64,000 nt of DNA, from NCBI RefSeq assembly GCF_003018235.1, contig NZ_CP027437.1; one strand, 5' to 3'. Both the position numbers and the translations under genes were made by a program. Source of the stretch: Escherichia coli (GTDB lineage: Bacteria > Pseudomonadota > Gammaproteobacteria > Enterobacterales > Enterobacteriaceae). Shown here piece after piece: positions 8,311-55,005 of this stretch (its first letter is position 1; every line of letters begins with the position of its first letter). The notes under the pieces are model-generated. The model was not told the origin of the DNA. It worked only from the letters and a program-made list of their open reading frames with translations, and did not search any database.

Positions 8311-8689
8311 TGTTTTCCTTGCGGGTTGTCCCGAGCCTCTTTGACGAATGTAATTAAAATGTTGAATCAAAATACATAGATATTAAATATAATCGTGGCA
8401 AATTTTATTCATTAAATCAATTAAATCACTTAAAACTGCGGGTCATTTCGTAATTACATTAATTAAAAAACTTAAAACCATTAAATAAATAAAAAACCAC
8501 TAACTCTATGTGAAATAAATCAAAATTTCACGCTGCAATACTCCTTAGGATGTATAGCGAAAGGAGAAAAAGATATACCTCGATCGCCCCCCTTTCTCCC
8601 AAGTAAAAATAAAAGGTTATCAGTTTGCAACATCGAACAACATTCGTTGCAAATCGATAACAACATGCACCTTCAGGATACTATTTATT

Positions 8690-16349: not shown

Positions 16350-16496
16350 TCCTCTGATTTACAAAACACGCTAATTCGTCTTCCATAAACCATGACGATT
16401 AAGATTTATACATAATGCGCTACATTGAGGAATTCCCTGAATGTGACGCAAATCACTTCAAAGAGTGAGCAACAGTCAGTATCATCATGTGAGTTA

Positions 16497-26756: not shown

Positions 26757-26954
26757 TTAGCAGCAGCGCGCGCCGCCTTTTCCACCGTAGCGCGCGTCCT
26801 GCCGCTCACGGAAAAACTCCTCGTAGGTCATCGGCGTTTGATCGGGATGGTTAACCCGCATATGTTCGACATAGTTGTCGTAATCAGGCATACCAATCAT
26901 CAGTTTCGCCGCCTGACCTAAATATTTTCCGGCTTTTGCCAGTGAATCAAACAT
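26757..26954 (-). CDS. ybdD: Small protein YbdD (DUF466), cstA-associated
   Basis: 65-aa [35 protein letters not shown]... immediately downstream of cstA. Confidence 0.88.
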
Positions 26955-26973
26955 CTAAACCTCCGGTAATACA

Positions 26974-27000
26974 AATGCCCTCCTGAATTAAGAGGGCTTA
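26974..27000. terminator. Hairpin between convergent ybdH and ybdD
   Basis: gccctcctgaattaagagggc inverted repeat. Confidence 0.45.
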
Positions 27001-27066
27001 ATTGCTATCAACACGCTCGGGCTGAGAGTAAGGGGAACGCTCAGCACATCCCCCCTCACTCTGACT

Positions 27067-29039
27067 TTAGTGCGCGCCTTTCGCCTGCGCCACGATCTCT
27101 TCGACATTTTCCGGCATCGGCTCATATGGCGTTTCTTTCGCCGTTGGCTTCGGCTCTTTCAATGCCGCCAGTGCCGTCTTAATCGAGAACAGCGCCAGAA
27201 CCACCACGACCACCATAAAGAAGATGGTTAACCCGGCATCAAGACGGTTGTTGAATACCAGTTGCGCCAGCTGTGACTCAGTATACTGCGACGGAATATT
27301 GCCGCTGTCGATCATTGCCTGGAACTTATTAGCAATCGCCTGGAAGCCGACTTTCGCATCCGGGCTAAACGCTTTCTGCCAGCCTGCGGTCAGGGTACAA
27401 ATCAGCAGCCAGGCCGTTGGTACCAGCGCCACCCAGGCGTAACGTTGACGTTTCATTTTGAACAGCACCACAGCACAGAGCATCAGCGCCATCCCTGCCA
27501 GCATCTGGTTGGCAATACCAAACAGCGGCCACAAGGTGTTAATACCGCCCAGCGGATCGACCACACCCTGATGGAGGAAGTAGCCCCACGCCAGTACGCA
27601 CAGCGCCGTTGCCAGCAGGTTAGCAGGCAGTGAATCGGTCCGTTTCAGGCCCGGAGACACCACGCCCAGCAGATCCTGCAACATAAAGCGCGCAGCACGC
27701 GTACCTGCATCCACCGCCGTCAGAATAAACAGTGCTTCAAACAAAATGGCGAAGTGATACCAGAACGCCACATCCATCATGCCGCCCAGCGCGCCGTGCA
27801 GAATGTAGGCCATCCCCACCGCCAGCGTCGGCGCACCGCCCGCACGGGAAATGATCGACTGTTCACCCACTTCGCTGGCAATCTGGTTGAGCGTATCTGG
27901 TGTAATGCTAAATCCCCAGCTACTCACCACCTGCGCGGCAGAAGCAACCACATCCGCCGTACCTGCCGGAGCCAGCACCGCCATCGGGCTGTTCATAGCG
28001 AAGTACACACCCGGATCGATGATACAGGCGGAAACCAGCGCCATAATCGCTACGAAGGATTCCATTAACATCCCGCCGTAGCCGATAAAACACGCCTGCC
28101 CTTCGTTCGCCAGCATCTTCGGCGTGGTACCGGAAGAGATCAGCGCATGGAAGCCAGACACCGCGCCACAAGCGATGGTGATAAACAGGAACGGGAACAG
28201 GTTACCGGTCCATACCGGGCCTGTGCCATCGACAAATTTAGTTAGCGCAGGCATGGTCAGCGTCGGGCGCATAATCAAAATGCCTACCGCCAGACCGACG
28301 ATAGTCCCGATTTTCAGGAAGGTTGAGAGGTAGTCACGCGGAGCCAGCAGCAGCCACACCGGCAGCACCGCCGCCACAAAACCGTAACCCACCAGCATCC
28401 AGGTCAGCTGCACGCCGGTAAAGTCAAAGTACGGTGCCCAGGTCGGGCTTTCTGCCACCCAGCCGCCAGAGATAATGGCGAAAATCAGGAACACCAGACC
28501 AATCACCGACACTTCGCCAATACGCCCCGGACGCAGATAACGCAGGTAGATCCCCATAAACAGCGCCAGCGGAATGGTGAACGCAACGGTATACGTTCCC
28601 CACGGGCTATGGGTCAGGGCTTTCACCACGATCATCGCCAGCACGGCAAGGATAATGACCATGATCATAAAGCAGGCCACCAGCGCAATCACCCCGGCAG
28701 GTAACCCATTTGCGCCGCCAGCACCGGCCCCACCAGCGGGCCTGCTCCGGCAATGGCCGCAAAATGGTGACCGAACAGCACTTTTTTGTCCGTCGGCACA
28801 TAGTCCAGCCCGTCGTTATGGCGCACCGCTGGCGTCATACGCGTCGGGTCAACCGCCAGCACATTTTTGGCGATATACAGGCCATAAAAACGGTAAGCGA
28901 TCAGATAGATACAGACCGACGCCACCACAATCCACAGCGCGTTGATCTGTTCCCCACGATTTAAAGCAATGTATCCCAGAGCAAATGCTCCCATTACAGA
29001 GAGCACTGTCCAGACGAGGTATTTCCCTGATTTGTTCAT
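27067..29039 (-). pseudogene. cstA: Carbon-starvation peptide/pyruvate transporter CstA, interrupted by frameshift/internal deletion
   Basis: The CstA N-terminus (116 aa ending ...AAQMGYLPG) stops at a TGA at 28689-28691; the remainder (541 aa from VIALVACFMIMV...) resumes in another frame from 28692. The sum (657 aa) is about 44 aa short of the roughly 701 aa I recall for CstA. Confidence 0.7.
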
Positions 29040-29100
29040 AGTTGTTATCCGTGTGCGTGTCCATAGAGATGTTACATTTTGTTTCTATAACATCTTTGCG
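29040..29100 (-). promoter_or_regulatory. cstA 5' leader with GGA motifs (CsrA-type sites) and a 7-13-7 hairpin
   Basis: Minus-strand leader ...gatgttatagaaacaaaatgtaacatc...atGGAcacgcacacGGAtaacaacATG; cstA is a known CsrA target. Confidence 0.4.
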
Positions 29101-29159
29101 CAATTTAACAACACAGCAACCATGTAAATCGGAGTTGAAACCAATATTTAACTTAACAA

Positions 29160-29175
29160 TGTTAACTCGATCACT
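29160..29175 (-). promoter_or_regulatory. Putative CRP site in the cstA promoter
   Basis: TGTTA-N6-TCACT resembles TGTGA-N6-TCACA, about 120 bp upstream of the cstA ATG; cstA is known to be cAMP-CRP dependent. Confidence 0.3.
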
Positions 29176-29219
29176 CCGTTAACCGAGTTTTCCTGCAATC
29201 TCATTTAATTCTGTCGGGT

Positions 29220-30381
<1,162 letters not shown>

Positions 30382-53709: not shown

Positions 53710-55005
<1,296 letters not shown>

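Follow-up and report, generated by a model that had tools for sequence, protein, structure and literature searches.

An apparently ordinary cstA promoter and leader in front of a recently disrupted cstA copy in Escherichia coli

Positions 29040 to 29175 of a 64,000-nucleotide stretch of Escherichia coli DNA (the window) lie directly in front of a broken copy of cstA and carry a set of motifs of regulatory appearance. The question raised by this locus is what these motifs are, and whether their intact state says anything about the fate of the gene behind them. A first-pass annotation of the window had described a CRP-like box, a 7-13-7 hairpin and GGA-containing CsrA-type sites in the cstA leader, and had taken the preserved regulatory apparatus to suggest either that the coding lesion is recent or that the leader and the truncated N-terminal peptide are still transcribed. 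On the evidence presented below we put the probability at roughly nine in ten that the region is the ordinary and already characterized cstA promoter with its short leader, unchanged in front of a recently inactivated copy of the gene. Regulation of cstA by CRP, Fis, ArcA, CsrA and GcvB is known already, and the region holds nothing new in that respect. Binding and regulation by these five, as well as the start sites of cstA, were transferred here from identical sequence in K-12 or enterotoxigenic E. coli (ETEC), and the known controls presumably still operate in this strain.

In the window the enterobactin cluster of E. coli precedes cstA, every gene lying on the minus strand; entH ends at about 29220 and the cstA ATG is at 29039-29037. 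In all best-scoring matches, drawn from 5,419 matching complete E. coli genomes, the genes were annotated as entA, entH and cstA, the last as "pyruvate/proton symporter CstA". The 180-bp intergenic region was identical to that of E. coli 042 at 180 of 180 positions and differed from that of K-12 at three positions, all outside the motifs; the leader and core promoter were the same as in K-12 base for base. The motifs (CRP box, Fis patterns, ArcA box, GGA sites and GcvB target) are accordingly shared with K-12, and the differences from K-12 lie behind the promoter, in a private 133-bp frameshifting deletion within the gene and in a shorter variant of the cstA-ybdD spacer downstream. That spacer (about 26950-27066, minus strand) was of a different type, approximately 70 bp shorter than in either K-12 or E. 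coli 042, with a GCCCTC...GAGGGC hairpin and a T run in place of REP-type repeats. Published K-12 start-site data give ybdD a 5' end of its own, 10 nt after the cstA stop. The motifs that had been reported for the cstA upstream region were all found: GATGTTA at 29068-29074, TAACATC at 29088-29094, the box TGTTAACTCGATCACT at 29160-29175 and a GGA at 29048-29050. The string that had been given for the ribosome-binding site contained this GGA but had lost one T, the true letters being cacGGAtaacaacTATG.

The CRP-like box could be identified as the CRP site of cstA. Read in the direction of cstA (minus strand, 29160-29175) it is AGTGATCGAGTTAACA. In ETEC H10407 exactly this 16-mer is a high-confidence ChIP-seq site for CRP in front of cstA (PMC4287617 Table 1), and cstA is also among the CRP genomic SELEX targets. 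Scored with a weight matrix which we built from the 106 other ChIP sites of the same table, the box reached 11.7 bits and ranked fourth of 63,985 window positions; this score was higher than that of 36% of the ChIP sites in the matrix and was equalled in 30 of 5,000 shuffles of the intergenic region, a match beyond what chance would give. With respect to conservation, 80 cstA loci from other Enterobacteriaceae were compared. The half-sites AGTGATC-N4-TTAACA were present at -87.5 to -89.5 from the alignment anchor in about 70 of 78 species, with the central four bases variable. Fixed half-sites around a variable center are the pattern expected for a working protein site, and the alignment points to one here. 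The same matrix gave three other high-scoring matches in the window, of which the best, TGTGACGCAAATCACT at 16442-16457 (15.8 bits), is the reverse complement of a published CRP ChIP-seq site upstream of rnk; the others were TGTGAAATAAATCAAA (13.7 bits) in the divergent intergenic region between citC and dpiB (8509-8524) and ATTGAGATCGATCACA (12.5 bits) at the start of an open reading frame (53797-53812).

The center of the CRP box lies at -89.5 from one reported transcription start (29078) and at -92.5 from the other (29075). The second value, obtained with the start from genome-wide mapping, is one of the two commonest positions of CRP sites in the ChIP-seq study. The arrangement thus resembles that of class I CRP-dependent promoters with a site near -92.5, the cstA box being 16 bp long with one good half-site (AGTGA) and one weaker one (TAACA), and departs from it in distance only if the start at 29078 is used. 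Work on the K-12 promoter placed the CRP site approximately 80 nt upstream of the cstA start, called this distance unusual and invoked a second factor; the promoter lost its activity in a crp mutant and was twice as active in a fis mutant (PMC7730263). In the same study two Fis sites adjoining or overlapping the CRP site were described, and Fis was found to repress cstA. Pattern searching of the window with GNNNRNNNNNYNNNC gave two overlapping matches on the minus strand, at 29178-29192 and 29169-29183 (together spanning 29169-29192), the latter of which overlaps the CRP box.

Two reported starts of cstA transcription could be placed on the window, as the sequence is identical to that of K-12. 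The cstA mRNA used in a model of CsrA regulation begins AATGTAACATC and has its ATG at nucleotide 40 (PMC6028588 supplement), which corresponds to the A at 29078 and a 39-nt leader; genome-wide start-site mapping in K-12 gave position 629081 with a 36-nt untranslated region and 43 reads (PMC3415461 supplement), which corresponds to the G at 29075. Both (29075-29078, minus strand) agree with the placing of the CRP site some 80 nt upstream of the start (PMC7730263). From the distance to these starts and from conservation in 52 distinct sequences, the -10 region was assigned to TGtTATAGAAA at 29082-29092 (minus strand), either as an extended -10 TG with TATAGA or as TAGAAA, and the putative -35 hexamer to TTGTTA at 29106-29111 (minus strand), the latter from conservation. 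In the alignment the core promoter was strongly conserved, consisting of GTTGTTAAAT, a variable spacer of 16-17 bp and then a block, TAGAAACAAAATGTAACAT, which is discussed below. A scan of 28900-29400 for consensus promoters and terminators gave no canonical promoter, as would be expected for a promoter that depends on an activator, so this result is uninformative; in the same scan no terminator was predicted between entH and cstA.

ArcA sites consist of direct repeats 11 bp apart, and loss of arcA raised cstA expression 21.5-fold (PMC3798270). The ArcA ChIP-seq peak at cstA was weak (2.6-fold) and was seen in one of two replicates, and the ArcA box predicted by Park et al. (2013) in Table S4 of that study is AAGTTAAATATTGGTTTCAAC at 29134-29154 (minus strand). 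With a direct-repeat matrix which we built from the same table this box scored 13.6 bits. A second two-repeat box of ArcA type, TGGTTGCTGTGTTGTTAAATT at 29102-29122 (minus strand), overlaps the -35 element and scored 15.4 bits, which is above the 99.99th percentile of the window and close to the median of the training sites (15.5 bits). A box at this position was found in 80 of 80 sequences compared, with a median of 13.3 bits. Table S6 of Park et al. gives the position -44 to -24, which is where this box falls when 29078 is taken as the start. A third start at -71, which that "-44 to -24" would imply, was considered and rejected, the figure being accounted for by the box at 29102-29122 counted from 29078. 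The cstA promoter is therefore overlapped by at least two TGTTA-type direct repeats 11 bp apart, as an ArcA box requires. Across 29060-29170, counting both strands, seven TGTTA-type elements resembling ArcA repeats scored above the 99.9th percentile of the window within about 100 bp of the cstA promoter.

The feature that had been read as a 7-13-7 hairpin is a perfect 8-13-8 palindrome, AGATGTTA-N13-TAACATCT, at 29067-29095 (approximately -17 to +12 of the promoter). Its 5' arm (29088-29095, about -17 to -10) lies over the -10 region and its 3' arm is at 29067-29074. The repeat itself is thus present, and indeed one base pair longer per arm than had been stated, but it does not clearly exceed chance expectation: the window holds 170 perfect inverted repeats of 7 bp with a spacer of 3-20, and such a repeat arises in 18% of shuffled versions of the intergenic region. 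We consider it probable that the palindrome is a chance by-product without a function of its own. Repeats of this kind are common in 64 kb and in shuffles of so AT-rich an intergenic region, and the full symmetry of 8-10 bp is limited to Escherichia and some Citrobacter. The 3' arm, on the other hand, forms part of a deeply conserved block, so that at least one arm would be functional even if the symmetry is accidental. Both arms also score as ArcA repeat elements, ATGTTATAGA with 10.2 bits and ATGTTACATT, on the other strand, with 10.8 bits. The palindrome is best seen as two promoter or operator elements of TGTTA type, one over the -10 region and the other over the start, which happen to face each other in Escherichia; transcription would begin between them.

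The conserved block, TAGAAACAAAATGTAACAT at 29069-29087 (minus strand), surrounds the start and is nearly invariant in about 78 species of Enterobacteriaceae. In 52 distinct sequences most of its columns showed at least 90% conservation, a level approached neither by the promoter spacer nor by the remaining leader. Within it lies a 9-bp palindrome, ATGTAACAT, and on its antisense strand the ArcA-repeat-like ATGTTACATT, and its 3' half is one arm of the larger palindrome. The ArcA repeat matrix gave 10.3-10.8 bits on the antisense strand of the block in 74 of 80 sequences. Part of this conservation is that of the -10 element and the start, and the -10 element does not fully explain the near-invariance; the remainder may reflect an operator for ArcA or for a regulator of the OmpR type. 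We looked for a published operator at 29069-29087 in the literature on cstA regulation and found none. Sites for OmpR, CpxR, Lrp, IHF or PdhR, and a Spot 42 target, were considered as identities of the block, and none of them is claimed.

This bears on a second reading of the palindrome, in which it, or the block inside it, is the operator of a repressor acting on the start, be it ArcA through the opposed TGTTA elements, an OmpR-type protein or another dimeric repressor. Such a reading is possible, if on the doubtful side. It has in its favor the conservation of the block, well above that of spacer and leader, the scores of both arms as ArcA elements above the 99.9th percentile of the window (in 74 of 80 sequences for the element at the start), the strong repression of cstA by ArcA and the raised cstA transcript in an ompR mutant of Salmonella Typhi. 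The block may also bear some resemblance to OmpR sites. The reading has its difficulties. The inverted symmetry is not conserved, the 5' arm varying freely; ArcA sites are direct repeats spaced by 11 bp, whereas the repeats here are inverted and 20 bp apart; the box published for ArcA at cstA lies elsewhere, at 29134-29154; and the conservation belongs in part simply to the -10 element and the start site. In a DNA pull-down with the cstA promoter, moreover, only Fis had an effect (PMC7730263). The narrower proposal, that TAGAAACAAAATGTAACAT is a hitherto undescribed operator, conserved in Enterobacteriaceae, to which ArcA or some other OmpR/PhoB-type response regulator binds, is put forward tentatively and as rather unlikely.

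The original reading of the palindrome, as a true RNA hairpin of the cstA leader that would expose or hide regulatory sequences such as those for CsrA, has fared far worse, is already largely refuted and is very improbable. Folded as RNA the palindrome does give a stable structure (-7.2 to -9.5 kcal/mol), and folds of 27-43 nt around it compared with shuffles gave z = -5.0 and -2.8. Two independent sources, however, put the start inside the palindrome (29078 and 29075), in agreement with the position of the CRP site; with both starts between the arms, a transcript from the cstA promoter contains the 3' arm alone, and the 5' arm is promoter DNA rather than cstA mRNA. A regulatory leader hairpin would have both arms in the transcript and compensatory changes in its pairs, and neither was found here. 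When 52 distinct sequences were aligned on the conserved GTAAC, the share of paired cells was 71.9% as compared with 71.0 +/- 0.7% in shuffles, giving no covariation. The outer three pairs held in about half of the 52 sequences, and pairs 6 and 8 were broken in 22 and 26 of them with no compensating change. An Rfam scan of 28000-30000 at a permissive threshold produced no family match to the leader or palindrome, only a chance match to a fly lncRNA. The GGA sites lie outside the palindrome, and the literature, as seen through secondary citations, likewise places the CsrA footprints of cstA outside stem-loops. On the other side, folding of a hypothetical read-through transcript also gave the hairpin. 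With no terminator predicted downstream of entH, transcripts reading through from the enterobactin operon could hold both arms and fold them.

The leader that follows the start is 36-39 nt long (29040-29078, minus strand). Four GGA-containing sites were located in the leader and first codons, all on the minus strand: AUGGA at 29060-29064 (-25; GGA 29060-29062) in the upstream leader; ACGGA at 29048-29052 (-13; GGA 29048-29050, 11 nt before the ATG) over the ribosome-binding site; AGGGA at 29024-29028 (+11; GGA 29024-29026) in codons 4-6 (Ser-Gly-Lys); and a secondary site, CUGGA, at 29009-29013 (+27; GGA 29009-29011) in codons 9-11. Three A(N)GGA sites thus fall between the start and +30, and this clustering exceeds chance, as many having been found in only 0.23% of equal-sized windows. 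When compared with the CsrA SELEX consensus RUACARGGAUGU (PMC3856055), the sites at 29048-29052 and 29024-29028 each matched at 8 of 12 positions, which ranks them among the best 8% of 1,499 GGA contexts found across the window, while 29060-29064 matched at 5 of 12 and 29009-29013 was also a weak match. Conservation of the upstream site was limited to Escherichia, Citrobacter and Salmonella; that of the site in codons 9-11 extended to Klebsiella and Raoultella as well, but no further. By contrast, a GGA at -10 to -12 was present in nearly all species compared and one at +12/+13 in all, so that the two best matches to the consensus are also the two conserved sites. The glycine at codon 5 was encoded by GGG (74) or GGA (6) in 80 of 80 species, as against 28% GGG plus GGA among the other glycine codons of the same genes, a count to which no exact probability attaches since the species are related.

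These positions agree with what has been described for cstA. According to Dubey 2003, quoted in PMC6028588 and PMC4066749, it is a footprinted target which CsrA binds directly and represses at translation, and Table 2 of PMC4066749 includes CTGGA among the secondary CsrA sites, giving the study of cstA as the reference. The exact footprinted sites are known to us through these secondary citations, and their correspondence to the GGA sites located here is to be read as probable. The GGA which had been noted at the ribosome-binding site is of the CsrA site type described for the gene: its match to the consensus, its conservation and its place in the cluster all bear this out. Several GGA or A(N)GGA motifs 10-60 nt apart with one over the Shine-Dalgarno sequence, the pattern taken to mark CsrA targets (PMC6028588), are found at cstA, a comparison that is partly circular in that cstA helped to define the pattern. 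The likeness is to the class of CsrA repression known from glgC, pgaA and cstA itself, with three A(N)GGA and one CUGGA motif between the start and +30 here, one of them over the ribosome-binding site. The difference from that class is that the cstA sites do not lie in hairpin loops; the predicted fold of the mRNA was weak, and the leader was no more stable than shuffles of it (z = -0.67). A GGA in a hairpin loop is a frequent feature of CsrA-repressed leaders, not an obligatory one. The leader also holds the CA-rich target of the small RNA GcvB, ACACGCACAC at 29051-29060 (minus strand). GcvB uses its R1 and R3 regions to repress cstA, and pairing is restored by the compensatory change G-22C, at what is 29061 in the window (PMC9299463).

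The coding region is indeed broken, as the first-pass annotation had said. Codons 1-116 are those of CstA and are followed at once by a TGA (28689-28691), giving a truncated frame at 28689-29039 (minus strand). Alignment with K-12 and E. coli 042 showed that 133 bp, comprising codons 117-160 and one further base, are missing between two GCCGGGG direct repeats, of which a single copy remains at the junction (28692-28698, minus strand), and that the resulting frameshift leads to the immediate TGA. The rest of cstA (27067-28691, minus strand) is out of frame with the 5' part, its old frame open to the normal stop; these remaining 1,632 bp contain no internal stops. Compared with E. coli 042 the 3' part showed 13 synonymous differences and one non-synonymous difference (L611Q). 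The L611Q change (CTG to CAG, at about 27337-27339, minus strand) is one of two non-synonymous differences from K-12, the other being D673E, and could be a first change after inactivation or a polymorphism of the lineage. A 133-bp deletion between 7-bp direct repeats has the look of replication slippage or short-homology recombination. It resembles other young pseudogenes that have lost the DNA between short direct repeats, in that a 7-bp repeat flanks the missing DNA, one copy is left and a stop follows quickly; compared with such pseudogenes there is nothing unusual at cstA, and secondary lesions have yet to appear. A literature search for reports of cstA pseudogenes returned nothing relevant.

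For the distribution of the lesion two specific probes were used, the 541-residue downstream product and a 47-nt junction query constructed in such a way that intact genes cannot seed a match. None of 5,426 complete E. coli genomes was matched by the junction query. In a very large collection the exact 541-residue product was found on two contigs only, an NCBI chromosome (5.01 Mb) and the Logan assembly of SRR8930575, and this independent assembly has the same junction. The 116-residue product proved misleading as a tracer. The same peptide arises from one-base frameshifts, so exact-peptide look-ups over-count the lesion, and the real junction was present at one of eight places. The other seven were one-base frameshifts in long-read E. 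coli assemblies with many other broken ent genes, and are more readily taken for errors of assembly than for the 133-bp deletion. Between the entH stop and the junction, a stretch of 527 bp that covers the leader and the 5' coding part, the sequence was 100% identical to that of many strains with intact cstA. The frame is thus disrupted, secondary decay is absent and the lesion is confined to a narrow lineage, as in a recent pseudogene. The lesion is on this sequence evidence private and very recent, given a junction absent elsewhere, a leader identical to that of intact strains and a remainder of cstA that has not decayed, and the suggestion of a recent lesion is borne out; the deletion would be too recent for any other change to have accumulated.

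As to the preserved apparatus, its sequence is unchanged, as had been stated, but the conclusion drawn from its preservation does not follow: with so recent a lesion no decay is expected, and an unchanged leader is the neutral prediction, uninformative on selection for leader or peptide. That the leader has been kept by selection, the 116-residue peptide or a re-initiated 541-residue C-terminal fragment being still functional, is the least probable of the readings considered, for although the TGA shares bases with a GTG at the head of the other 541 codons, read in their old frame (GTGA, 28689-28692, minus strand), an overlap which could allow termination and re-initiation into an intact 3' part, the lesion is in one strain only and has left no time for selection to show, the identity with intact strains is expected under neutrality, and 44 residues, putatively including a membrane-spanning segment, are lost with the deletion.

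The preferred reading, an ordinary cstA promoter and leader ahead of a recently broken gene, would work as follows. A weak sigma-70 promoter would direct transcription from 36-39 nt ahead of the ATG and would need cAMP-CRP bound approximately 90 bp upstream at AGTGATCGAGTTAACA. Fis, at the sites overlapping the CRP box, would damp the promoter in fast growth, and ArcA would repress it without oxygen through the TGTTA-type repeats over the -35 region and nearby. On the mRNA, CsrA bound to the GGAs of the ribosome-binding site and of the first codons would block the ribosome, and GcvB would pair with the CA-rich stretch between the GGA sites. The first-pass annotation had named CRP and CsrA correctly and had missed the actions of Fis, ArcA and GcvB on the region.

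The finding is of small weight in that it re-identifies, with CRP and CsrA, a regulatory region of textbook level in a well-studied E. coli gene. Its useful corrections are that the palindrome is promoter DNA and not mRNA, and that the conserved CsrA-type sites are those at the ribosome-binding site and codon 5. A modest lead is left in the block at the start site, which is strikingly conserved beyond what published accounts of cstA regulation cover. If the block does prove to be an operator, a regulator bound at TAGAAACAAAATGTAACAT would shut off the pyruvate transporter directly at its start site.
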